From Nanobdellota archaeon (lineage in GTDB: Archaea > Nanobdellota > Nanobdellia > Pacearchaeales > GW2011-AR1), in contig JAKADZ010000003.1 in the NCBI GenBank assembly GCA_021818475.1, forward strand, positions 27,988 through 91,987: a stretch of DNA of 64,000 bases. The letters are read 5' to 3'. The translations under genes were made by a program, and so were the position numbers. The notes under the pieces are model-generated. The model worked only from the letters and a program-made list of their open reading frames with translations. It searched no databases and was not told the origin of the DNA. Below, in pieces: positions 2,825 to 63,066 of the stretch (position 1 is the stretch's first letter; every line of letters begins with the position of its first letter).

Positions 2825-3874
2825 TTGCATAAAAATATCATGGACGAGGAATATTTCAGAAAGATAACTTCTACGGGGATTATTTTGATTTTGGGGGTCT
2901 TGTCCTTCTTTCTTTTAAAACCGATTTTGCTCTCGGTAATCGCAGGTTTTTTGCTTGCATTTGTATTTTCCCCAATTTACAATCTCCTTGTGAAATGGAC
3001 TAAATCCCGGGGGTTTTCTGCGGCAATTTTGCTGATAATCCTTCTGGCATTAATTATAATCCCGATTTGGTTTTTGACTCCGGTACTGATAAGCGAGTCC
3101 ATAAAACTTTATGTAGCTTCACAGCAGATTGACCTCGTAACCTTCTTGAAAGATATTTTCCCTTCTATTTCAAGTTCAGTAATATTGTCCCATGCAGTTG
3201 ATTCGACAATTCACTCATTTATCACAAATGCAACTAATTCGTTGATGAATTATTTTGCAAATATCATTTCAGATATTCCAAATATTGCAGCGCAGATTTT
3301 AGTCATATTCTTTACATTTTATTATGCATTAAGAGATAAAGATCAGATAATCAGTTACATTCAAAGCCTTCTTCCATTTTCAAAGGAAGTTCATAAAAAA
3401 TTATTTGATTCAACAAGGGACATAACTTCGTCAATCCTTTTCGGTCAGATTCTCGTGGGATTGATTCAGGGGCTGATTTTATCCCTGGGATTTTTTATAT
3501 TCAATGTGCCAAATCCTTTCCTTCTGGCAATTGTTGCAATTCTAATCTGCATCTTTCCAATTTTGGGCCCAACATTTATCGGAGTACCTGTAGCTTTATA
3601 TTTTGTAATCGGCGGAAATACTTTTGCCGCATTTGGAATTATATTATTTACAATCCTTTCTCATTTATCCGATCATTTTACAAGACCTTTCTTTGTTGCG
3701 AAGAGGGCGAAACTGCATACTGCTTTGGTTTTGATAGGAATGATTGGCGGATTTATCTTCTTCGGAATTCTCGGATTTGTCCTTGGCCCTTTAATCCTTG
3801 CTTATTTGATTATAATTATAGAAGTATATAGAAACAAGAACCTTCCCGACGTTCTTATTCAGTCCAAGCAATAA
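2825..3874 (+). CDS. AI-2E family (PerM/UPF0118) membrane transporter
   Basis: 349 aa with ~8 TM helices; the overall hydropathy and conserved G/P pattern is typical of the AI-2E family. Confidence 0.6.
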   Translation: MHKNIMDEEYFRKITSTGIILILGVLSFFLLKPILLSVIAGFLLAFVFSPIYNLLVKWTKSRGFSAAILLIILLALIIIPIWFLTPVLISESIKLYVASQQIDLVTFLKDIFPSISSSVILSHAVDSTIHSFITNATNSLMNYFANIISDIPNIAAQILVIFFTFYYALRDKDQIISYIQSLLPFSKEVHKKLFDSTRDITSSILFGQILVGLIQGLILSLGFFIFNVPNPFLLAIVAILICIFPILGPTFIGVPVALYFVIGGNTFAAFGIILFTILSHLSDHFTRPFFVAKRAKLHTALVLIGMIGGFIFFGILGFVLGPLILAYLIIIIEVYRNKNLPDVLIQSKQ

Positions 3875-5707: not shown

Positions 5708-6077
5708 TTCTTTAGGCTCACCTTGTCGCCTATTAATACCATTACGCCCCAGACTTTGTCAAGGCGCTTCATTCAATAAGTTATCGCGATAAATCTAAGT
5801 TAAACAATTAATTTTTTTTTCACATTAAATATTTTTGCGAAGAAATCTAACAAAGTTGATTTCGAAGCTTTGAAAATTTGCGAGTGAAGTGAGCAGAATA
5901 TTCTTCCCTTCAGAAAGTTTTAAAACCTAACAAATAATTTATAATTTATCAAGATGCCTCTGCGCGAAATTTATTGAGCGTAGAGCGAACGAAGTGAGCC
6001 TCCGTCGCATATGAGAACCTCCTGCGGGTTCTTCACAGTTCCAGCATCCATGGAACAATATGCTTGTTGGCAAAGAT

Positions 6078-6205
6078 GCCTCCGTCGCATAATGGTATTG
6101 CACCGGTCTTGAGTGAGGATAAAACCTCCTAATTGTTCGTCGAGGTTTCGTCAAACAAGAGAACCGGGCCTTTATGGCTTCCAGGTTCGATTCCTGGCGG
6201 GGGCG
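6078..6205 (+). tRNA. tRNA-Ser (anticodon UGA) with a ~48-nt intron at the canonical 37/38 position and a long variable arm
   Basis: Manual fold: acceptor GCCTCCG/CGGGGGC (one G-U pair); D-arm GCAT-AATGGTAT; anticodon stem CCGGT/ACCGG with loop CTTGAGT (U33, anticodon TGA 6110-6112, R37); intron ~6114-6161 interrupting the 3' anticodon stem; variable arm GCCTTTATGGCTT (13 nt); T-arm CCAGG-TTCGATT-CCTGG; discriminator G; CCA not encoded. Confidence 0.7.
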
Positions 6206-6366
6206 TGATGGCGTGATGCGGGCTTGAAATGCCCGCCTGTTCTTAACAAAATTAATGCTAGATTATTCTGAAAATTCGATTCCGAGCGATTTCACGAATG
6301 CGGGAAATTTTTGAAAGCAATGAGTGGGGTCGCGAGCATTGACGGGGGCGTTCCTACAAAATGTCT

Positions 6367-7599
6367 TTAAGAATTCATCTGACTGCTTGATTCCTGTGCA
6401 CTTGCAAAATTATTTGGGTTGGGTATGCTCTCTTCGTTCCCAAGATTTTTCCAAAAGAAATTAACTGTATCGTTGCTAATTTCGTCAATTGACGGATTTA
6501 CTATGCTCCCCGGAGGTGACGGAAGGAATTCATGGCTGGCATTTGCGACAAGGATATAAGTAGCATCATTATTATATGATCGTAAGTCCTCATAAAATTG
6601 TTTTGTCATTGTTGGCAAGCTTAATGGGTCATGGTCGCCTTGAACAATCAAAAAAGAAGGATCATTGTAATTAACAAAGTTTCCAGCGTTAGCAAGACTC
6701 ATGAGTGTTAAATTTCCATTGTATTCTGAAACAAGAGCCTGATATCCTTCCGTGCTCATAAGTTTGGTAAAAAATATTTGGACTTTGTTAACAGGGGTAA
6801 TCCCGCTTCCGTAAAAATTCACAACTGCCTGTGGCCTTGTTGGTATTTTAATATATTCATCATAACTGAGATTAGCCCCATCTATTTTCAAGTCTGGGGA
6901 ATTTTGCCAGCTTTCACTACCATTAATTACTCCTACAATAGATGAGAGCTGCCCACCGACGCTGCCCCCGAAGATTCCAATCTCATTTTGATTTCCCCCA
7001 AATCCATTTGAATAATATTTTAAGAACCGTATCGCACATAAAATGTCCTGAACTTGTGTGGGGTATTTATTTTCTGGAGCAAGTTTGTAATCAACAGCAG
7101 CGACAATAAAATCATGGCTTAACAGATTTGATATTACTGAACCCGCATCATAACCTATCCTGTCTTTGTTACCACTTGTAAATCCCCCTCCGAAGACGTA
7201 GATTACAATAGGTCTGTTCGATTTGCTCGAAGAATTTAGTGGAGAATTGGCGTAAAGATTCAGCTTAATTGGACTACCTTGAGATACGCAGTAAGTTATG
7301 TCAGTTGCTTCATAAAACTTCCCCTCTGAAGGAGTCCATAGATAGACTGTTCTTTGTAAATTCTCAAAAGAACCTCCCTGTTCTGGAAGATTATCTGCCT
7401 TAGCGCTGTACACGCCGGGAATTTCGTTCCAACTTAAACTAAGGTTATTTTTGTAATTCGTAATTGATGCAGCTGCATCATAAGTTTCAATATAATGCGG
7501 ATGATTGTGCGATGGAACCGCGAAGAAGATTACAAACAGAACAAATAATATAATAAAAAATCCTACTGGTATGATTATAAATAACCACCACTTTTTCAT
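6367..7599 (-). CDS. membrane-anchored alpha/beta-hydrolase (esterase/lipase, Abhydrolase_3-like)
   Basis: N-terminal TM; oxyanion motif VFGGGF (HGGG-like); nucleophile elbow GGSVGG (GxSxG). Confidence 0.65.
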   Translation of the reverse strand: MKKWWLFIIIPVGFFIILFVLFVIFFAVPSHNHPHYIETYDAAASITNYKNNLSLSWNEIPGVYSAKADNLPEQGGSFENLQRTVYLWTPSEGKFYEATDITYCVSQGSPIKLNLYANSPLNSSSKSNRPIVIYVFGGGFTSGNKDRIGYDAGSVISNLLSHDFIVAAVDYKLAPENKYPTQVQDILCAIRFLKYYSNGFGGNQNEIGIFGGSVGGQLSSIVGVINGSESWQNSPDLKIDGANLSYDEYIKIPTRPQAVVNFYGSGITPVNKVQIFFTKLMSTEGYQALVSEYNGNLTLMSLANAGNFVNYNDPSFLIVQGDHDPLSLPTMTKQFYEDLRSYNNDATYILVANASHEFLPSPPGSIVNPSIDEISNDTVNFFWKNLGNEESIPNPNNFASAQESSSQMNS

Positions 7600-7712
7600 A
7601 TAACTACTTATTATTAATGTTTAATAATTTTTTCCTTCTTTGATTTTAATCTGGTTTGGCATTATTGCATAATATATTCCTCAAAGATATTTTATCTGGG
7701 CGTTCGTCACTT

Positions 7713-8036
7713 TTATCCCATCAAAATTCTGCTGATAATTCCTATCACAATTCCCAATCCCGCAATCCCCCCGATTACAGTTATCTTCTTTGCTGTGGAA
7801 ACTTTTTTGATATGAAGCATAAATGCAATAATCATCAGGACAAGATACCAGAGGGCATCAAGAAAATACCAGTCGAAAATCTGCAGTCCGATTTTTGCAA
7901 ACCCTGTAAGATGCGGGACAACATAATTTTCCAGATAAAAATAAATCGGGTCGATAGGACTAGGAACTAATGTTCCTATGAATGCCCCAAGTAAAAAAAT
8001 TCCTATCTGTGACTTAAAAAATTTTTCTTTTTTCAT
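7713..8036 (-). CDS. small integral membrane protein, hypothetical
   Basis: 107 aa with 3-4 hydrophobic helices. Confidence 0.35.
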   Translation of the reverse strand: MKKEKFFKSQIGIFLLGAFIGTLVPSPIDPIYFYLENYVVPHLTGFAKIGLQIFDWYFLDALWYLVLMIIAFMLHIKKVSTAKKITVIGGIAGLGIVIGIISRILMG

Positions 8037-8075
8037 CTCTTTTATTCAGTCTAATATTTTTCCCTATTTAAATTA

Positions 8076-9320
8076 TCAGATTCTGAAAATTTTTACCTGC
8101 TTTCTCTCGCATGATTTGCAGATTTTTTTCCCGTTGTTTTTTGTTATGTGATAATCACAGAAAATTTTTCCGCAGGCATCACATCTGTTCCAGCAGTGAG
8201 AGCATAATGTCCTTCCGCATTCCTCGCATTTTTTTGTCTGGCAGCTCTTGCAGTAAACACTCCCGCATGATGCACATTTGTCTCCGCATTCTCTGCAGGT
8301 TATATGCCCCGAAGAGCATAATATTATCTCCTTGACTTCTTTTCCGCAGCTTTTGCAATGGACAGGGGAAACAATTTTTTTCAGCGGATCATAGCCAAGT
8401 TCAATAATTTTTAAGTTATTCTTCTCAACTTCCATGGTCAGATTAAGATTATAAAACGGAAAATAAATAATCGTGGTATTGACGAGCTTAGTGTCAATTT
8501 TCAGCCCGTGCTTTCGGATTTCTTTTTGTATGAACTCTTGCTCTTCTTCTTTTATTTTATTTTTATTACTATTCTCATTCAGATTCTCAAGCATTTTGTT
8601 CAGCCTTTTTACTTTGTCGCGGTCTTCCCTGTTTGCTTCAATCTGTTTCTTCAGCGAATTTTCCTGCTCCTCAACTTCCGACAGATTATTCTGGTAAAGC
8701 TGGTTAATCCTCGCAATTTCATTATTGAGCTGCTCCCCCAATTTTTTCTTAAGTTCTTCGGTCTTAGGCAAAATTATTTTTTTCAGCTCTTCTCTTGCAA
8801 GGGAGTACTCTTTCTCCGCGCTGACTTCCTGAAAGTCTCTTTTATTCCCTTCAGCCAGATTTAGGGAATTATCAAAATCAATTATTTTATTATCCAGAAC
8901 GTAAATCTGATTGATTACAGTCTCCTTTTCATTCAGATACTGGAATGTGGTTGCAAAGGAAAATTTGAAAATAAACCTGTTCGTAGAATTTTTATTGATG
9001 CTTCTTATTTCAGAATTAAGAAAAGGAATTCTCTTCGGAATTTCTTCCTTGAAATTAATTCCAAAATCAATTCTCAGAAGAGTGGTTTCCCCTCTTCCTT
9101 CAAGAAATTCTTTTATTGTTTTTACAAGATAATGACTTTGGGAGACATACTCATATCCTTCCCTTTCTCTGTCAAATGAAAAAAAATACGGTCCCTTTTT
9201 TCCGGAAAACTTTTCGAAATTCGCGGGGATTTCTGAAACAACAAGTTCTCTCTCTCTCTGCTGGACATTGCACCCTATGCTTTTGAAAAATTTGGAATAA
9301 AAATTAATCAGTTCATTCAT
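8076..9320 (-). CDS. coiled-coil protein with a C-terminal cluster of ~9 CxxC zinc-ribbon motifs; last gene of the helicase operon
   Basis: 414 aa: N-domain, long K/E/N-rich coiled coil, then HCKSCG...CRECGDKCASCGSVYCKSCQTKKCEECGRTLCSHCWNRCDACGKIFCDYH...CKSC. Its start overlaps the SNF2 gene stop (9313-9320). Confidence 0.55.
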   Translation of the reverse strand: MNELINFYSKFFKSIGCNVQQRERELVVSEIPANFEKFSGKKGPYFFSFDREREGYEYVSQSHYLVKTIKEFLEGRGETTLLRIDFGINFKEEIPKRIPFLNSEIRSINKNSTNRFIFKFSFATTFQYLNEKETVINQIYVLDNKIIDFDNSLNLAEGNKRDFQEVSAEKEYSLAREELKKIILPKTEELKKKLGEQLNNEIARINQLYQNNLSEVEEQENSLKKQIEANREDRDKVKRLNKMLENLNENSNKNKIKEEEQEFIQKEIRKHGLKIDTKLVNTTIIYFPFYNLNLTMEVEKNNLKIIELGYDPLKKIVSPVHCKSCGKEVKEIILCSSGHITCRECGDKCASCGSVYCKSCQTKKCEECGRTLCSHCWNRCDACGKIFCDYHITKNNGKKICKSCERKQVKIFRI

Positions 9321-11097
9321 TGTCTAAAAACTCCCTGTTCTCTTTTTCATTTTGTTTGTAGCATTTAACCCCCTCCTCAATCTGCTGCGCAATTTTTTGT
9401 ATATCCTGCGAGAATATCTGGAGATTATTTTTTGAATCAATAAATGAGTCCATTATAAGCTCCTCTATCTTATTCACCCCTTCATTGTTTTCAGAATCAA
9501 GGCCGAGATTAAAAAGAATTATCGGCAGCTCTCCGATTACTAGTCCTATACAGCACATCTTATTGATTATTAAATCAACAACATGCTCTTCTAAAGTGTC
9601 TTTTGTTGCAAGGCTGTAGATATTAATGTCATTTTTCTGCCCGATTCTGTCAAGCCTCCCTATTCTTTGTTCAACTGACATCGGATTCCACGGCAGGTCA
9701 TAATTTATCAGATTCCTGCAGAACTGGAAATTAAGGCCCTCTGCTCCCGTATCCGTGCTTATTAAAATATCTGCCCCGTTCCTGAATTCCTGAACTCTTC
9801 TTGTTCGCTCCTCCCTTTCAAGCCCTCCGACAAATTCAACAATCTTCAGATTAAGGTGTTTTAAATTTTCAATTATATATTCAAGCGTTGAAGGATGCCG
9901 TGTATAAATTAAAATCTGATCTTTTGGATTTTCTTTTTTTATTTTTTCAACAATCTCAACGAGTTTTTTCATTTTTGAATCAACTCCTACTGACTCATAT
10001 TCAACAAGAATTTTTTTTGCTATATCCCTTGTTTTTTCATGATATCTTTCATCGTCAATTATCCTGAGCAGGGATTCTTTTGCGGATTTGGAGGAGCTTG
10101 TAACTTTCGGAAGGATTGCATACACAATCAGCTTCCCGTTGATGGAATCACCATTGGCGGAAAAATACTGCGTTTTAAGCATCTCGCATGTCGCATCATA
10201 AATTTCCTTTTCCTTTTTTGTGAGTTCAACAGGAATTATTTTTGGAATTCTTTTTTTGTAATTAATTCCTGTCTGGCTTCTTTTTCTTCTTATCATTACT
10301 TCTTCAAGTTTTTTCCTGAGTTCCTTCGGATTTAGCGGATATCTTTTATTCCCTCTGTTCATAAATCTTTTTTTGAATTCCTTTATTGTCCCCAAATGCC
10401 CTCTTTTAAGAAGATGAAGCAGATTGTAAAGTTCAATTAAATCATTCTGGAAGGGTGTGGCTGTAAGAATCAAAAATCTTTTTTTCTGCAGCTTATCCAC
10501 AAATATCCATCTGACTGTCCTCCTGGCTTTTAATTTATGCCCCTCGTCGACAATAAGAAGGTCCCACGGAATCTGGTGAGCTTTGTGATGTGTGAACTGC
10601 CCTGTTTTTTTATTCCAGGATTTAACGCGGTCAATTGATGCAATTGCAAGCTCCGCATTGTCCCAGCTGTTTTCATTTTCTATTATTTTAAAATCAAGAT
10701 TAAACTTATCTCTTAACTCACTTTTCCACTGGTCCACTAATGAAGGCGGAACCAATATAAGGATTGTTTTTGCAAATCCTCTTGTAATCGATTCTTTTAT
10801 CACCATCCCCGCAGTGATTGTTTTTCCAAGCCCGACTTCGTCGGCAAGAAGTGCGGTGCAGTTTAAGTCGCGTATTATTTTTATTGCTCCTTCTTTCTGA
10901 TAATCAAGTTTGTATTCAAGATTGTCTTTTATCAGTTCGTAAGAAATAAGTTCATTAACGTCATCTTTTGAAAATTCTTCTGCTTCAAATTTTAAATCGG
11001 AAATTTCCTTTGATTCAAATTCTTTTTTTTCTATCTTTTCAATTAAGTCAAGTCCTTCATCGGAAAAATTTTCTTCAACAATTATTTCATAACCCAT
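9313..11097 (-). CDS. SNF2/Swi2-family ATPase (SF2 helicase-like)
   Basis: Motif I LLADEVGLGKTITAG; motif II LLIVDEGHKLK (DEGH); helicase-C motifs ISTDTGAEGLNFQ and QRIGRLDRIGQK. Confidence 0.8.
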   Translation of the reverse strand: MGYEIIVEENFSDEGLDLIEKIEKKEFESKEISDLKFEAEEFSKDDVNELISYELIKDNLEYKLDYQKEGAIKIIRDLNCTALLADEVGLGKTITAGMVIKESITRGFAKTILILVPPSLVDQWKSELRDKFNLDFKIIENENSWDNAELAIASIDRVKSWNKKTGQFTHHKAHQIPWDLLIVDEGHKLKARRTVRWIFVDKLQKKRFLILTATPFQNDLIELYNLLHLLKRGHLGTIKEFKKRFMNRGNKRYPLNPKELRKKLEEVMIRRKRSQTGINYKKRIPKIIPVELTKKEKEIYDATCEMLKTQYFSANGDSINGKLIVYAILPKVTSSSKSAKESLLRIIDDERYHEKTRDIAKKILVEYESVGVDSKMKKLVEIVEKIKKENPKDQILIYTRHPSTLEYIIENLKHLNLKIVEFVGGLEREERTRRVQEFRNGADILISTDTGAEGLNFQFCRNLINYDLPWNPMSVEQRIGRLDRIGQKNDINIYSLATKDTLEEHVVDLIINKMCCIGLVIGELPIILFNLGLDSENNEGVNKIEELIMDSFIDSKNNLQIFSQDIQKIAQQIEEGVKCYKQNEKENREFLDNE

Positions 11098-22072: not shown

Positions 22073-22134
22073 ATCAGCCTTGAGCAGTATTTCAGTGGGA
22101 AATTCGAGCGGAAGAAACCGGAGGTGTCGTCGCA
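22073..22134 (+). repeat. repeat family 2, copy a (5' UTR of secE; supplies its GGAGGTG Shine-Dalgarno)
   Basis: ATCAGCCTTGAGCAGTATTTCAGTGGGAAATTCGAGCGGAAGAAACCGGAGGTGTCGTCGCA is ~85% identical to 58656-58719 and related to 27626-27690. Confidence 0.6.
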
Positions 22135-24873: not shown

Positions 24874-24930
24874 CCGAGCGATTTTGCGAGTGCTGGTAAA
24901 AATAAAAATGCAACGAGCAGGGTCGGGAGC
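24874..24930 (+). repeat. GC-rich repeat family 1, copy B (upstream of spt5)
   Basis: CCGAGCGATTTTGCGAGTGCTGG...AAATGCAACGAGCAGGGTCGGGAGC; shares the CCGAGCGATTTYRCG core and the GGGTCG.GAG tail with copies at 6281, 26221, 37588, 44405 and 56872 (reverse orientation). Confidence 0.55.
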
Positions 24931-26067: not shown

Positions 26068-26103
26068 AACAATTTATAAATTAATATTCGTTAAATTTTT
26101 TAT

Positions 26104-26176
26104 GGGGCTGTGGGGTAGCCTGGTAGCCTTAGAGGTTTGGGACCTCTCGACCCCGGTTCAAATCCGGGCAGCCCCA
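26104..26176 (+). tRNA. tRNA-Pro (anticodon UGG)
   Basis: Manual fold: acceptor GGGGCTG/CAGCCCC; anticodon stem AGAGG/CCTCT with loop TTTGGGA; T-arm CCCGG-TTCAAAT-CCGGG; discriminator A; 73 nt, no intron. Confidence 0.8.
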
Positions 26177-26220
26177 TTGTTTCGAAAAAATAAAACCCAT
26201 AACGGATTTGAACTTCAAAT

Positions 26221-26290
26221 CCCGAGAGTTTGCACGAGTGCGTGCAAAGATAAAAATGCAATGAGTGCGGGCTCGAGTTCGGCAGCCCCA
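26221..26290 (+). repeat. GC-rich repeat family 1, copy C, ending in a 12-nt copy of the tRNA-Pro 3' end
   Basis: CCCGAGAGTTTGCACGAGTGCGTGCAAAGATAAAAATGCAATGAGTGCGGGCTCGAGTTCGGCAGCCCCA; GGCAGCCCCATT at 26281-26292 repeats tRNA positions 26167-26178. Confidence 0.6.
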
Positions 26291-27610: not shown

Positions 27611-28297
27611 ATGGTAAAAACTCGCATCAGCCATGAGCACACTTTTAAAGGGAAAAACTGGAAAGAAGAACCGATTAGGTTCGTCTTCATTCCGGCTAAG
27701 ATAAAAGACGAGATTGATGAGAAAAAAATAAGCTCCCTGAAACTTCCCAAGACTTTAGCAATTGCTTATTCAATTCAATATAAGCCTATTGCAGAAAAAA
27801 TAAAGGAAATTCTTTCCAAGAATCATGAAATTACTTCAATAATTCAGGTTCTTGGCTGTTCTTCACCAAAATTTTCAAAAAACACAAAAGCAATTTTGCT
27901 TGTCGGTTCAGGAAGATTTCACGCTTTCTCCCTGCAGTTTGAGACAGGGATTCCTGTTTATATCTTGGAAGCAGATGAGCTGAAAAAAATTTCCGGCGAG
28001 GAAGTTGAATCTTTCAGGAAGAAAAAAACTGCATCTTACCTTAAATTTTTGAATGCAGACAAAGTAGGGGTATTGATATCAACAAAACCCGGGCAGGAAA
28101 ATCTGAAAACTGCTCTTTCTCTTAAATTAAAAGATAAAAAACAATATTTCTTTTTGGGGAATAACATTGATACTCGGGAATTTGAAAATTTTGGATTAAC
28201 TTCATGGGTGAATACTGCCTGTCCCCGACTGGATTATGACAGCTCAGTAATAAACCTTGCAAATTTAAACTCGGGCAAGTCCAAAAACAGTTTTTAA
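27611..28297 (+). CDS. diphthamide synthase Dph2-like protein, apparently N-terminally truncated (two of three domains)
   Basis: ILLVGSGRFHAFSL, VGVLISTKPGQENL, WVNTACPRLDYD resemble Dph1/Dph2 domain motifs; 228 aa versus ~330 expected. The first ~25 codons are repeat family 2, copy b. Confidence 0.4.
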   Translation: MVKTRISHEHTFKGKNWKEEPIRFVFIPAKIKDEIDEKKISSLKLPKTLAIAYSIQYKPIAEKIKEILSKNHEITSIIQVLGCSSPKFSKNTKAILLVGSGRFHAFSLQFETGIPVYILEADELKKISGEEVESFRKKKTASYLKFLNADKVGVLISTKPGQENLKTALSLKLKDKKQYFFLGNNIDTREFENFGLTSWVNTACPRLDYDSSVINLANLNSGKSKNSF

Positions 28298-36777: not shown

Positions 36778-37128
36778 ATGTCACAGACAACACGGGAAAT
36801 CACCCTTAAGGAATCAAAAGGAACATTTTCAATATTCAGGAAATCGTCGTCAAATAAAGAAAATTATGATTTTTCAGGGATTTCCGCATTAAGACAGCTT
36901 CTAAGCAACGAAAAGGCAAGAATACTTGATGTAATAAAAAATGAAAATCCTTCTTCATTATACCTTCTGTCTAAAAGGCTTGGGAGAGATTTCAAATCTG
37001 TCCACGAAGATGTAAAATTGCTAGAAAGATTTGGATTTTTGGAGCTTGTAGAGGAAAAAACAAAGAACAGAATAAGGCATAAACCAAGGCTTATTTCAGA
37101 TTCTATAACTATTCACATAAAACTTTAA
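36778..37128 (+). CDS. small winged-helix transcriptional regulator (HTH), divergent from the S-layer-like gene and adjacent to the pilin cluster
   Basis: LDVIKNENPSSLYLLSKRLGRDFKSVHEDVKLLERFGFLEL resembles an ArsR/PadR-like wHTH. Confidence 0.45.
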   Translation: MSQTTREITLKESKGTFSIFRKSSSNKENYDFSGISALRQLLSNEKARILDVIKNENPSSLYLLSKRLGRDFKSVHEDVKLLERFGFLELVEEKTKNRIRHKPRLISDSITIHIKL

Positions 37129-37712
37129 CTGTAAACAGTCAGAGAAACCTCATAATCCTGCCCGCTTCTTGCAAAATCCTGGAATCCTCCCTGATATTCT
37201 GCAGTTTTATTCCCCTTATCAATAGTAAGCTTGTCCTGTCCGTCAGCACTCACTTTCAGCTCATATCCCTTTATCGCGCTTTGATTCCCCGCATTCCACG
37301 AGTTTTCAACTATTCCCGCAAACGTCGAATTAAGAACATCACAGCTTGCCCTTCCGTCAATACAGCTTTCTCCGCTATTGCATGATATAATCAAATCCTG
37401 CAGGTTAAGAAATTGGATTTCATTCTCGCAGTCAGTGGTGTATTGGAGTGAAGCCTGAATAAAACTGTCAATCTGGTAACTTTCAGTTGTTCCTTTGGTT
37501 GGGCTTTTTATTAAAAAACTAAGCAAAATCAGCAATCCTACTGACACAATGATCGCAATAAGCGCAAATCCAACCATTTCCTCTTGCCCCGAGCGATTTC
37601 GCGGAGTTAAGGTCAGTGATTTGGAAGCGAGGTCGGGAGTTGTTTTGTTGCGGTACAAATGAAAAAAATTTCCTGTTTTTTGCTTCTGCCCTTTATTATT
37701 TAATCTTATCAT
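37125..37712 (-). CDS. archaeal type IV pilin-like protein (class III signal peptide, long leader)
   Basis: ...KSLTLTPRNRSGQEEMVGFALIAIIVSVGLLILLSF: basic residues then G-Q followed by a hydrophobic helix. The leader-coding region contains family-1 element D. Confidence 0.55.
   Translation of the reverse strand: MIRLNNKGQKQKTGNFFHLYRNKTTPDLASKSLTLTPRNRSGQEEMVGFALIAIIVSVGLLILLSFLIKSPTKGTTESYQIDSFIQASLQYTTDCENEIQFLNLQDLIISCNSGESCIDGRASCDVLNSTFAGIVENSWNAGNQSAIKGYELKVSADGQDKLTIDKGNKTAEYQGGFQDFARSGQDYEVSLTVYS
37588..37639 (+). repeat. GC-rich repeat family 1, copy D, embedded antisense in the leader-coding region of pilin gene 37125-37712
   Basis: CCCCGAGCGATTTCGCGGAGTTAAGGTCAGTGATTTGGAAGCGAGGTCGGGAG is ~85% identical to 44405-44460 although the rest of the two genes is diverged. 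Confidence 0.6.
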
Positions 37713-43640: not shown

Positions 43641-44492
43641 TTATGTTGTTGGCGTTAAGTATCCTGCAGGCCATATTTGCCCTCTTATTGCAAACTGAAA
43701 TTTATCTCCTGTGTCTCTGTCAGTCAGTACGTAAATTTTTCCGTCATTTCCCCTCAAAATTTTTTCTGCTTTCAGATTATGATAGTAAGTCATGTATGTT
43801 GCTACATCAACATCACCATAACTTGCTTCCCATTCGATTATACTATTAGCTATTGAAACTAATTCATAAAGATTATTATTCACCAAAACAACAAATGAAT
43901 TATACTTCTGCGCATTTTCTCCTTTTGTCAAAGTTAAGGAATAATTAAAAGTTGCGACAATCCTGTTTGGAAATAATTCAACTGTTTTCATTCCAGGTTT
44001 TAAATCGACGCTGAATCCTTGTTTGACATAACTCTGCTGCATTGATGTAAAACAGGCATCGACGTTATTGCTTATCTGATTTTTAATCTCTGATTCAATA
44101 TGTGATTTTAACATTGGCTGCTGCACTTCGCACGGACGGTAATATTCATTTGTGTAACATAGGTATTCAACTTTTGAATCGTTGTAAAGAAGATAATTTG
44201 TTGCATTTATGCTTCCTCCCTGCAGTGAAAGAGTGTCGACGGCATTTTTAATATCCTGTTCAATGCAGGATTGAATAAATTGTTGCGGACTTTGCTGTGC
44301 TGTTCCCAAACTTGTTTTAATCTGCGGATAAAAACTATAAATAAGAAGTCCTACAGCGACGATGATTATTCCGATGATAATAAAAATAGTTACCTGCCCC
44401 GAGCGATTTCGCGGAAGTAAGGTCAGTGACTTGCAAGCGGGGTCGCAAGCAGTTTTATTACTTAGAAAATTATTTCCCTCTTTTTTATCCAT
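43641..44492 (-). CDS. archaeal type IV pilin-like protein (283 aa), paralog of 37125-37712 at the leader
   Basis: ...ACKSLTLLPRNRSGQVTIFIIIGIIIVAVGLLIYSF; the leader-coding region contains family-1 element E (44405-44460). Confidence 0.55.
   Translation of the reverse strand: MDKKEGNNFLSNKTACDPACKSLTLLPRNRSGQVTIFIIIGIIIVAVGLLIYSFYPQIKTSLGTAQQSPQQFIQSCIEQDIKNAVDTLSLQGGSINATNYLLYNDSKVEYLCYTNEYYRPCEVQQPMLKSHIESEIKNQISNNVDACFTSMQQSYVKQGFSVDLKPGMKTVELFPNRIVATFNYSLTLTKGENAQKYNSFVVLVNNNLYELVSIANSIIEWEASYGDVDVATYMTYYHNLKAEKILRGNDGKIYVLTDRDTGDKFQFAIRGQIWPAGYLTPTT
44405..44460 (+). repeat. GC-rich repeat family 1, copy E, in the leader-coding region of pilin gene 43641-44492
   Basis: CCCCGAGCGATTTCGCGGAAGTAAGGTCAGTGACTTGCAAGCGGGGTCGCAAGCAG. 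Confidence 0.6.
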
Positions 44493-56871: not shown

Positions 56872-56943
56872 TCCCGCCCACCCAACTCGAGCCCTCACTC
56901 ATTGCTATTATATTTTTTCCTGCATTCGTGAAAACTCTCGCCC
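56872..56943 (-). repeat. GC-rich repeat family 1, copy F (reverse orientation) in a convergent intergenic region
   Basis: Reverse complement reads GGGCGAGAGTTTTCACGAATGCAGGAAAAAATATAATAGCAATGAGTGAGGGCTCGAGTTGGGTGGGCGGG. Confidence 0.55.
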
Positions 56944-60706: not shown

Positions 60707-60945
60707 AAAAAAGAAAGAAGAAATGAGTTTATAGGGGTTTTGGAAGCCAGATAGTTTCTCACAAAATTCAAAAAAGAGGCGATAACAATAGACAAAAAAT
60801 TGCGGAGCAATTTTTTATGAAAAATAGCGCGCTTGCACGTGAATAATTTTATTTTTTTATGCAGCACTCTGTTTGCTAAAAAATATTTCTTTTAGAAAAA
60901 GAAAACAAAATTTGTTAGAGAATACTTATTTAATGTTTCATAAAA

Positions 60946-61731: not shown

Positions 61732-62811
61732 TCAATTTATTTCCTCCTCCTCTACTTCAATTCTGTCATGGGTTGGATATTCCTCGACTCTGAAAATTTT
61801 ATATTTTCCTTCTTTCAGTAATCTTCTTGCAACCTTTTCGGAAAGAATAGTCCTTTTCTTTTTTTCGTCATAAAAAACCCCTTTTAATTTAATTTTTTTT
61901 CGACTTCCTGTCGGGTTGCTGGAGTTGTGAAGAACCCGCTGGAGGTTCCCATTGATTACCAGATAAATAACAGTTCCCTCTTCTGTCCTTTTTCCATACG
62001 GAAGAATCTCATGTCTCTTAAGTCTGTTGGCAAACTGGCAGAGATTTTTCAAATCGGCAGTGCACAAATGAACTTTCAGTTTTATTTTTTTATCAGCCAA
62101 CTGATTTAAAATCCATTTCCCCGCTTCAAGACTTCCTGCGACAACATATCCTCCTTCTTCAAGTTCGTATTTTTTTGTTATTATGTCAAAATTTGTTTCT
62201 GATAATTCGAATTCATTCAGGTTAACAAATGAAATATATTTTTCAGTTCCGAAGATAAAATCTAATATCTCATGTTTTCTTTCAGGAATCATCGGCATCT
62301 CAAGTCCGATATTCCGCTTACCGAATATTTTTTCCGCCATTTCTATTTTTTTGATATCATCATCAACTTTGTTTTGGTTTATGAGGAACTCTGGGTGGAA
62401 TCTGACTTCATCGACGCATTTTTTTAATTTTTTTAATTTTTCTTCTGTGACCAATTGTGTCGGAAGGTAAATATGAATATGAAATTTTTTTCCGAATTTT
62501 TCTTTTAATGCAGAGGCAAATTTAATCGTTCTGCCAAAATAAATTAAAGGATCTCCTCCGGTGATTCCTGCAGAAGGGGCTCTGCTCTCTATCGCTTCCT
62601 GTATAATTTCATCGATATTTTTTACCTCGCGTTCATTTGCAAAAATTAAATTTTTGTTTTTTCTTTTTTTGCTTAATGAACAGTACCAGCAATTTTTTTT
62701 GCAGACTCCTGTTACGAAAAGAACTAATTTTTTTCCTTTCACGCAGTATTTGCATCCGTTTGCAACGCCGTTAACACAGAAAGAATCAAATTTTGTTTTT
62801 TTAGTTTTCAT
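61732..62811 (-). CDS. radical SAM protein with extra N-terminal cysteines
   Basis: CKKNCWYC (CX3CX2C); upstream CVNGVANGCKYC; glycine-rich ITGGDPL SAM motif. Confidence 0.55.
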   Translation of the reverse strand: MKTKKTKFDSFCVNGVANGCKYCVKGKKLVLFVTGVCKKNCWYCSLSKKRKNKNLIFANEREVKNIDEIIQEAIESRAPSAGITGGDPLIYFGRTIKFASALKEKFGKKFHIHIYLPTQLVTEEKLKKLKKCVDEVRFHPEFLINQNKVDDDIKKIEMAEKIFGKRNIGLEMPMIPERKHEILDFIFGTEKYISFVNLNEFELSETNFDIITKKYELEEGGYVVAGSLEAGKWILNQLADKKIKLKVHLCTADLKNLCQFANRLKRHEILPYGKRTEEGTVIYLVINGNLQRVLHNSSNPTGSRKKIKLKGVFYDEKKKRTILSEKVARRLLKEGKYKIFRVEEYPTHDRIEVEEEEIN

Positions 62812-63066
62812 AATAATCTCAATTATCTTTGTTTTAAAAATTACTCGCTTCGCTCGTTTTATTTATCCCATCTTTTTTAACTGAATTTAATTAGTTTTTA
62901 TAACATTAAAATTGACGAAGATTTAACAAATTTCTGCTTCTCTTTTTAAGAGAAGTATTTTTTAGCAAACGAAGTGCCGCGTAAAAAAATAAGAATTATT
63001 GTGAGTTACTTTGGAACGAACGAAATTAAGAAGAATTGTAAAATTATTTTCTAAAAATTAATCTCT

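Follow-up and report, generated by a model that had tools for sequence, protein, structure and literature searches.

How does a transfer RNA (tRNA) gene come to be flanked on both sides by pieces of its own ends? The question is raised by a tRNA-Ser(UGA) gene in a stretch of 64,000 nucleotides (nt) from a Nanobdellota archaeon (contig JAKADZ010000003.1), here called the window. A sequence-only reading of this DNA had noticed a copy of the gene's 5' end upstream and of its 3' acceptor strand downstream, and it suggested that the outer copies either pair into a processing helix around the precursor or are remnants resembling the attachment (att) sites attL and attR. We favor a different explanation, to which we give a probability of about 0.6, namely that the copies are partial duplications at the DNA level that came from insertions of small non-coding hairpin elements at both ends of the gene.

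Both copies hold up. Allowing two mismatches, the 14-nt sequence GCCTCCGTCGCATA occurs in the 64 kb only at 5998-6011 and 6078-6091, so that the upstream copy does lie 80 nt before the functional 5' end; shuffles gave 0.05 matches, and none of 100 reached two. The 8-nt sequence CGGGGGCG likewise has just two sites in the window, 6198-6205 and 6343-6350. Here shuffles gave 0.13 matches and one of 100 reached two, so this match alone would be marginal. If it stood by itself, chance similarity of short G+C-rich words might account for it, but the 14-mer never appeared twice in the shuffles, and the pattern recurs at about 21 other tRNAs, each time with the sequence of the tRNA concerned, which leaves coincidence a negligible explanation. 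The sequence-only reading had also placed the 3' copy at the end of a repeat that it called family 1, and a covariance model of the hairpin H, the core of this repeat, bears that out. Its account lacked a copy of the T loop (TTCGATTCC), a third partial 5' copy (AAGATGCCTC) and a parallel arrangement at a tRNA-Pro gene of the same window. On the 3' side of the tRNA-Ser gene, the features are as follows.

6218-6236, plus strand: T-arm-like hairpin GCGGGC-TTGAAAT-GCCCGC, 13 nt after the tRNA-Ser gene, seen in the sequence and in the RNAfold minimum-free-energy structure.
6275-6283, plus strand: copy of the tRNA-Ser T loop and first T-stem bases (positions 54-62), abutting H, from sequence comparison.
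6283-6336, plus strand: conserved hairpin H, 56 positions, covariance-model match of 72.5 bits.
6340-6351, plus strand: second copy of the tRNA-Ser 3' end, TGaCGGGGGCGT, which extends the 8-nt match to positions 63-73 plus 1 nt with one mismatch.

No open reading frame (ORF) lies in the DNA bracketed by the tRNA-end copies, whose length is 66-116 nt at the 5' end of the gene and 137 nt at its 3' end. The hairpin at 6218-6236, with its 7-nt T-loop-like loop, may be either a further piece of a tRNA or a hairpin of terminator type.

We compared the window with 43 related loci (L001-L043) and found that the link between H and tRNA ends is not random. The covariance model identifies six copies of H in the window and 44 in the related loci, and about 26 of 47 copies lie 20-130 nt downstream of a tRNA on the same strand, representing at least 13 tRNA species. 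At about 21 of these genes, a repeat of that very tRNA begins 1-6 nt after H; it starts at tRNA position -9 to -15 and continues to between 0 and +35 nt past the gene. At the same genes, H is preceded at a distance of 0-1 nt by a sense copy of the T arm, which stops at tRNA position ~62; 15-25 nt before H there is often an antisense T-arm piece as well. The 3' repeat is 42 nt long in L019, where 33 nt of it are flank, and 44 nt in L022. Because the repeat includes flank that is not tRNA, it must be a duplication of DNA and not a tRNA-specific RNA signal. The T-loop copy of tRNA-Ser has a fuller counterpart in L019, where antisense and sense copies stand together (GAATCGAACC-gtt-GGTgTCGATTCC). 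The parallel case in the window is tRNA-Pro(UGG) at 26103-26177, which is followed by GGATTTGAAC-TTCAAATCC (antisense and sense copies of its own T arm), by H at 26223-26277, and by GGCAGCCCCATT (its own 3' end plus 2 nt). The whole module covers 26103-26290 and ends just upstream of an ORF resembling ribosomal protein L37Ae (start about 26324).

Variants of the arrangement occur at other tRNAs. A mirror form is found at the 5' end of a tRNA-Leu gene in L039, in the order of positions 1-15, an inverted H, positions 17-24, antisense 17-24, a duplicated promoter and the intact gene; the inverted H is followed there by antisense of positions 1-15. In L021 (2636-2760), the promoter and body of a tRNA-Val(GAC) gene are intact and then give way to a T arm with G55, H, and CA-GCAGGACCA, with no second intact 3' end. 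This gene also has an A70 mismatch, ARAGORN makes no call even when H is removed, and it looks dead. The 3' end of tRNA-Leu(AAG), TTTTACCCGCAT, stands in three tandem copies 40-45 nt apart in L016 (860-1010, minus strand), in two copies in L014 (2150-2220), and in one in L007 (1081-1170), and H is absent from all three loci.

Six of the related loci carry a syntenic tRNA-Ser gene (L001, L003, L019, L040, L041 and L043), which allows filled and empty sites to be compared. The gene is plain in L001, L040, L041 and L043, where intron, flanking copies and H are all missing, and all three are present in L019 and in the window. The relatives' loci thus show the flanking copies in L019 and neither of them in four of the six. 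In the relatives, an XPD-like helicase gene follows tRNA-Ser. Directly after the 3' copy, the window has a block of ~5.3 kb (6367-11097) that encodes an alpha/beta hydrolase, a 107-amino-acid ORF, a 414-amino-acid ORF of unknown function and an SNF2-type helicase. In L001, L003, L019, L040 and L041, this block does not stand between tRNA-Ser and the XPD-like helicase; it is a lineage-specific island adjoining the tRNA.

The 5' side records a more layered history, laid out below.

5905-5945, plus strand: ancestral tRNA-Ser promoter region AAGTTTTAAAAC...TTTATAAT, which aligns upstream of the plain genes of L001, L040 and L043.
5952-5961, plus strand: first partial 5' copy, AAGAT plus GCCTC, equal to tRNA -5 to +5 and identical to 6073-6082.
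5962-5997, plus strand: 36-nt insertion, read from the sequence, with GCCTC as a 5-nt direct repeat at 5957-5961 and 5998-6002.
5998-6011, plus strand: second partial 5' copy, tRNA positions 1-14, one of the two occurrences in the window.
6011-6061, plus strand: double-hairpin element, GAGAACC-N7-GGTTCTT then GTTCCA-N7-TGGAAC, recognized by similarity to 61914-61952.
6058-6072, plus strand: degenerate antisense copy of the tRNA 5' end, ATATGCTTGTTGGC against ATATGCGACGGAGGC, from sequence reading.

In the syntenic relatives, a promoter shared by all (AAGTTTTAAAA...TTTATA) lies directly 5' of tRNA position +1. The corresponding region of the window also aligns upstream of the first partial copy in L019, and its TATA-like boxes and their spacing suggest that it acts as a promoter. 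The distance from this region to the copy at 5952-5961 equals that to tRNA +1 in the relatives, yet at 5957 only GCCTC of the old gene start remains. L019 lacks the 36-nt insertion, so that its 14-nt partial copy, GCCTCCGTtGCATA, comes directly after the promoter, 59 nt 5' of its tRNA and with one mismatch. A 45-nt spacer and the gene follow; the spacer ends in the same antisense remnant (TACAACGTCGGC in place of 6058-6072), and the double hairpin is missing. The stems described earlier within 6011-6077 are present in the sequence and in the RNAfold structure, in which 6058-6072 closes a stem with 6006-6011 and GCAUAU pairs with AUAUGC. In a survey of 52 tRNAs, partial 5' copies of 10-15 nt were seen at eight, and at several of these another hairpin family follows. 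The leaders of tRNA-Lys, tRNA-Thr and tRNA-Ile in L004, L011 and L033 have 11-14-nt 5' copies, then a shared insert GGGTTTYTT..AGAAA..AAGAAAC-CTACAATG; a AAATGCTTAAAATGCATTCATTCGCTACA motif comes next in L004 and L011, and each of the three has a TATA-like box about 30 nt before the functional tRNA.

The double hairpin in the leader is a mobile element. Positions 6011-6049 are 87% identical over 39 nt to the reverse complement of 61914-61952, the best match, which lies inside a radical-SAM gene (61732-62811).

61901-61951, minus strand: 51-nt double-hairpin element in ORF 61732-62811, in-frame, 17 codons, GNLQRVLHNSSNPTGSR.

Eight of nine close homologs lack this predicted 17-residue insertion, and the reading frame is kept; the double hairpin is a palindromic element that entered a protein gene in frame, and the added codons may be either translated or spliced out of the mRNA. 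The homolog P0134 has a similar 17-residue insertion (NGNHQRVFHNSCNPTGS) at another position. Further copies of the double hairpin stand in L037, within a 72-nt tRNA-Thr intron and at 3483-3517, and in L027, where tRNA-Lys begins 56 nt downstream. Two side observations concern the same gene. Homolog P0129 carries a different 15-residue insertion near its N-terminus, and inverted repeats of 69 nt that are 83% complementary (60849-60917 and 62924-62992) bracket about 2 kb containing the radical-SAM gene and a neighbor.

H itself is a structured element. Across 42 copies, 97.9% of cells are paired, compared to 27-50% in slid-partner controls, and six of the 15 pairs have compensatory changes. Several U-G pairs are invariant, and there are two conserved tandem G.A motifs; these recall a K-turn, although H has no 3-nt bulge where a K-turn needs one. 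Pattern scans recovered H at eight genome loci and 28 metagenome loci, all on DPANN-type contigs, and found no match in 2.9 million viral contigs, which leads us to reject H as the end of a virus or plasmid. Against Rfam, nothing reached threshold (best CRISPR-DR19, 15.7 bits, E = 7). As in transposable elements of the miniature inverted-repeat type (MITEs), H is dispersed in multiple copies with indel polymorphism at orthologous sites, and its stem arms act as inverted repeats; upstream of dph2, for example, L017 has an H and the window none. Because all 44 covariance-model matches are full length, retroposition with 5' truncation was rejected. H could also be taken for a non-canonical tRNA intron at 62/63. 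A central UUCG/CGAG helix can be drawn for it (tRNA-Asn, L029), but this conflicts with the conserved H stem. A functional tRNA intron fares no better, as the H-bearing copies have no tRNA body except in L021, where the gene looks dead.

Other copies of H lie away from tRNAs. Two high-scoring ones at 24875-24929 (plus strand) and 56886-56940 (minus strand) have no tRNA nearby. One precedes the spt5/nusG-rpl11 genes by 13 nt; the other, in an intergenic region of 620 nt, has its flanks AAAAAGAGGTGATA...GGGC and TTGGGTGGGCGGGAA in common with H copies in L010, L012, L025, L026 and L027. A variant, H-b (about 29 bits), occurs on the plus strand at 37590-37639 and 44400-44449, antisense in the 5' parts of the paralogous minus-strand ORFs 37125-37712 and 43641-44492. 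There it would read ..KSLTL(L/T)PRNRSGQ, just before a hydrophobic stretch like an archaeal pilin-type signal. H-b is also found 1 nt after tRNA-Ser(GGA) in L005. A module of ~70 nt, ATCAGCCATGAGCA..TTTAAAGGGAA..GAAGAAACCGATAAGGTGTCGTCGC, is repeated on the plus strand at 22073, 27626, 38233, 39770 and 58656 and has the look of a common promoter and leader. In L007 it adjoins tRNA-Leu, and in L009, L015, L017, L022 and L023 H is inserted in its middle. At 27626, it overlaps the point where a diphthamide-synthesis gene is annotated to start.

The host and the gene at the center of all this are unexceptional. The source of the DNA is a DPANN archaeon of the Pacearchaeota/Nanoarchaeota type. Among the proteins encoded in the window are PCNA, primase, archaeal L10P and a wyosine radical-SAM enzyme; the G+C content is 34.8%, and the AMP phosphorylase has its nearest homologs in Pacearchaeota, Nanoarchaeia and metagenome-assembled genomes (MAGs) labeled 'uncultured archaeon'. 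We searched the window for tRNAs using ARAGORN with and without intron mode and using the Rfam tRNA model RF00005. With introns allowed, ARAGORN placed tRNA-Ser(tga) at 6077-6206 with a 48-nt intron and drew a cloverleaf with anticodon UGA, a long variable arm (GCC-UUUAU-GGC) and G at position 73, traits of a class II tRNA-Ser. Without intron mode it missed the gene, and its sole find in the window was tRNA-Pro. The Rfam match (6078-6205) scored 41.4 bits, above the gathering score of 29. The gene is made up as follows.

6078-6113, plus strand: tRNA-Ser(UGA) exon 1, positions 1-37, from ARAGORN and Rfam, with the same sequence in L001, L040 and L019.
6114-6161, plus strand: 48-nt intron at 37/38 with a relaxed bulge-helix-bulge (BHB) motif, from ARAGORN and folding.
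6162-6205, plus strand: tRNA-Ser(UGA) exon 2, positions 38-73, with the long variable arm and discriminator G, from ARAGORN and Rfam.

The exons match the intron-less tRNA-Ser(UGA) genes of relatives exactly. Both searches thus bear out the tRNA and its canonically placed intron of ~48 nt, as the sequence-only reading had them, and the 37/38 position agrees with the central helix. Owing to a repeated AG, the exact splice junction is ambiguous by 2 nt. Like other archaeal BHB introns, this one has a 4-bp central helix (CUUG/CAAG, in which C32-G35 pair with intron CAAG, and which is also present in L019 and L003) and a canonical 3-nt 3' bulge (AGA), in an archaeal host and with a presence that varies among relatives. 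It differs at the 5' site, AG|U, which lacks a clean 3-nt bulge and a contiguous inner helix; a local hairpin follows instead, opposite a strand with unpaired bases. Forcing the canonical motif puts the 5' site in a 3x3 internal loop at -17.8 kcal/mol, compared to -21.1 kcal/mol for the free fold, a cost of 3.3 kcal/mol. The intron hairpin noticed earlier is real and covaries with the L019 homolog (GAGG/CCUC versus UUAAG/CUUAA), but the BHB motif claimed with it is, on this modeling, only a relaxed one.

Among the syntenic genes, L019 has a homologous intron of 47 nt, L003 an unrelated one of 40 nt with a strict motif, and L001, L040, L041 and L043 none. Because the host is of the DPANN Pacearchaeota type, the tRNA-Ser intron is ordinary: the gene is a typical archaeal intron-containing tRNA gene, and the 37/38 position is nothing unusual. 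A C/D-box small RNA in the intron or 3' flank was considered and rejected, since Rfam gives only a weak snoR13 match (23.6 bits against a threshold of 60, E = 0.38) and the box spacing does not fit. In L003, a LAGLIDADG-like ORF (7853-8460, with LSGDGYL and ITDGH) lies directly 5' of tRNA-Ser, and its frame continues across exon 1 into the intron; the ORF could be a free-standing homing endonuclease paired with a target-protecting intron. Nothing in the window resembles this ORF, and we rejected the idea that the tRNA-Ser leader is a degraded homing-endonuclease gene.

How might such a locus have been built? We propose that small hairpin elements repeatedly entered both ends of the tRNA-Ser gene. 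On the 3' side, a block consisting of the T-arm copy, H and a short linker would have been inserted, and therefore a second copy of tRNA positions ~63-73 follows H, with the functional tRNA intact upstream. In L019 and L022, the second copy carries more than 30 nt of flank as well. On the 5' side, two remnants of the old gene, its first 5 nt and its first 14 nt, would have stayed next to the ancestral promoter. The functional 5' end would then have come to lie 80-121 nt downstream of these partial copies, beyond the mobile double hairpin and the 36-nt insert with its 5-nt target duplication. The double hairpin, the 36-nt insert and the 5.3-kb gene block between the 3' copy and the XPD-like helicase may be later additions in the lineage of the window. 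The gene may owe its survival to the fact that an intact end was left or created in each event, beside a displaced partial copy. The duplications themselves probably form as an element inserts or as a break in the tRNA gene is repaired. The old promoter would still drive tRNA-Ser, giving a transcript with a leader of about 120 nt, and the outer copies presumably have no function of their own. We prefer this account because the arrangement recurs at tRNA-Pro and at ~21 tRNAs of relatives, and because of the mirror form in L039, the filled and empty orthologous sites, the mobile double hairpin, the tandem ends in L016 and the tRNA-Val gene disrupted by H in L021.

Several observations weigh against such a history. 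Among about 40 ORFs in the window, no transposase, integrase or reverse transcriptase was found. H has no target duplication at non-tRNA sites, and its repeats at tRNA sites range over 9-44 nt instead of having a fixed length, which is at odds with a classical transposon. In H, the invariant U-G pairs and tandem G.A motifs have the appearance of selection acting on an RNA of the tRNA strand, hinting at function. Additionally, positions 54-56 are changed in every T-arm copy that precedes H, and neither this regularity nor the antisense T-arm piece can be derived from a known mechanism. Finally, at the tRNA-Ser locus the intron, the 5' copy and H are either all together or all absent, which could mean a single event of another kind.

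The alternatives are less probable. If the outer 5' and 3' copies paired in the primary transcript, the resulting helix would enclose the pre-tRNA and could guide its endonucleolytic release, as in archaeal rRNA operons. Indeed, when 5957-6360 is folded with RNAfold, GCCUCCGUC pairs with GACGGGGGC over 9 bp (p about 0.9, duplex -14.2 kcal/mol) while the true acceptor stem also forms, and L019 retains both outer copies. The long-range helix is therefore thermodynamically possible, but the comparison with relatives opposes a designed stem. Pairing is automatic because the copies derive from two complementary acceptor strands. Both are missing in four of the six syntenic relatives, and the helix is not conserved, being absent in L001, L003, L040, L041 and L043. 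Among 25 tRNAs with a downstream element only 5-6 also have a 5' copy, the tRNA-Pro of the window has none, and the 3' repeat reaches as far as 35 nt beyond the tRNA, into flank that has no 5' partner. The likeness to archaeal rRNA processing stems thus ends at a predicted long-range helix formed by the flanks: those stems are cleaved at a BHB, whereas this one is a continuous duplex that has no bulges or BHB motif and is missing at other tRNAs with the module. We consider a processing stem very unlikely. A doubtful candidate, somewhat better placed, is that H is a functional RNA module (a terminator, a stabilizer, a protein-binding hairpin or a portable promoter) and that the tRNA-end copy is part of its function. 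The strand-specific conservation of structure, with its invariant U-G pairs and tandem G.A motifs, argues for it, as do the high conservation of the H sequence across MAGs whose proteins are about 70-78% identical and the copies upstream of spt5-rpl11 and rpl37ae. The A/T-rich loop of H, about 25 nt before its 3' foot, may also resemble a TFB recognition element (BRE) and TATA box. But the H-b subfamily has this loop replaced, two copies are found within ORFs in antisense orientation, orthologous sites in relatives lack H, and the repeat tracks flank and not tRNA alone.

Direct repeats of a tRNA end that bracket foreign DNA and leave the tRNA intact are the classic signature of tRNA-targeted integration, and duplicated tRNA ends accompany archaeal and bacterial integrative elements such as SSV1 and pNOB8. 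In a Campbell-type scenario, circular elements with a tRNA-end att site would have left attL, a small residue with H as an arm-type site, and attR. On both sides of tRNA-Ser, tRNA-end repeats do bracket inserted DNA beside an intact gene; their length varies between loci over 9-44 nt, as att identity segments do, L016 has tandem arrays of partial ends, and variable gene content, here the 5.3-kb lineage-specific block, directly follows the 3' copy. However, the bracketed DNA is always 60-140 bp, in one layout at 13 or more tRNA species, which makes random decay unlikely. Neither it nor the scanned ORFs of the window contain an integrase, the viral contigs gave no match, and H occurs at many non-tRNA sites without repeats. 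The antisense and sense T-arm copies, followed by H at ~62/63, are not expected of att sites, and here the repeats extend into flank. Thus one part of the att-like suggestion stands, in that the copies are DNA-level duplications tied to inserted DNA; the insert, consisting of 60-140 bp of hairpin repeats, is not an integrase-bearing element. Integrase remnants are a possible but improbable source of the module.

Other known systems resemble the insertions we favor in part. Casposons and Cas1-type integration use tRNA 3' ends and make 14-15-bp target duplications, and many repeats here are 11-17 nt at the same target. Yet the repeats span 9-44 nt, terminal inverted repeats are missing, Cas1 is not encoded nearby, and H stands elsewhere without repeats; as the repeat length is not fixed, we rejected a casposon-like or classical transposon target duplication. 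Small palindromic mobile repeats include Rickettsia palindromic elements, mitochondrial double-hairpin or repetitive hairpin-forming elements, and the bacterial repetitive extragenic palindromic (REP) and MITE families. The likeness lies in 50-56-nt hairpins with many copies per genome, in indel polymorphism at orthologous sites, and in insertion in frame into protein genes and into introns and leaders. Here the host is an archaeon, the sequences are unrelated, no terminal inverted repeat with fixed target duplication is recognizable, and H is tightly linked to a defined position of the duplicated tRNA 3' segment. By their defining features, the module is not an integrase element, a fixed-duplication transposon, a casposon or a processing stem. 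Closest to it are two known patterns, the duplicated tRNA ends of integration sites and the small palindromic repeats whose insertion genes tolerate.

A search of titles and abstracts found no description of the H-repeat module. We tentatively raise, as a long shot, that the module and its 5'-end mirror image were left behind by a mobility mechanism of DPANN archaea that is so far undescribed, is specific for tRNA ends and has H as its structured RNA component. In one version, a site-specific nick in the T-stem (or D-loop) would be followed by target-primed snap-back DNA synthesis. In another, an RNA of H plus repeat would serve as a guide against the intact tRNA gene.

The tRNA-Ser gene and its intron add nothing new; their value lies in the context. 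This locus illustrates that complementary flanks can suggest a processing stem when they are scars of duplication. It also shows that, in ~1-Mb genomes of the Pacearchaeota type, families of 50-56-nt hairpins occur at tRNA ends, in introns, in leaders, in promoter-like modules and in-frame in protein genes. If true, the insertions would also explain some of the disrupted or odd tRNA genes that make tRNA annotation in DPANN archaea unreliable, of which ARAGORN mis-called or missed several here. If the regular architecture does reflect a specific mechanism, it would be a new way for selfish DNA to exploit tRNA genes without killing them.

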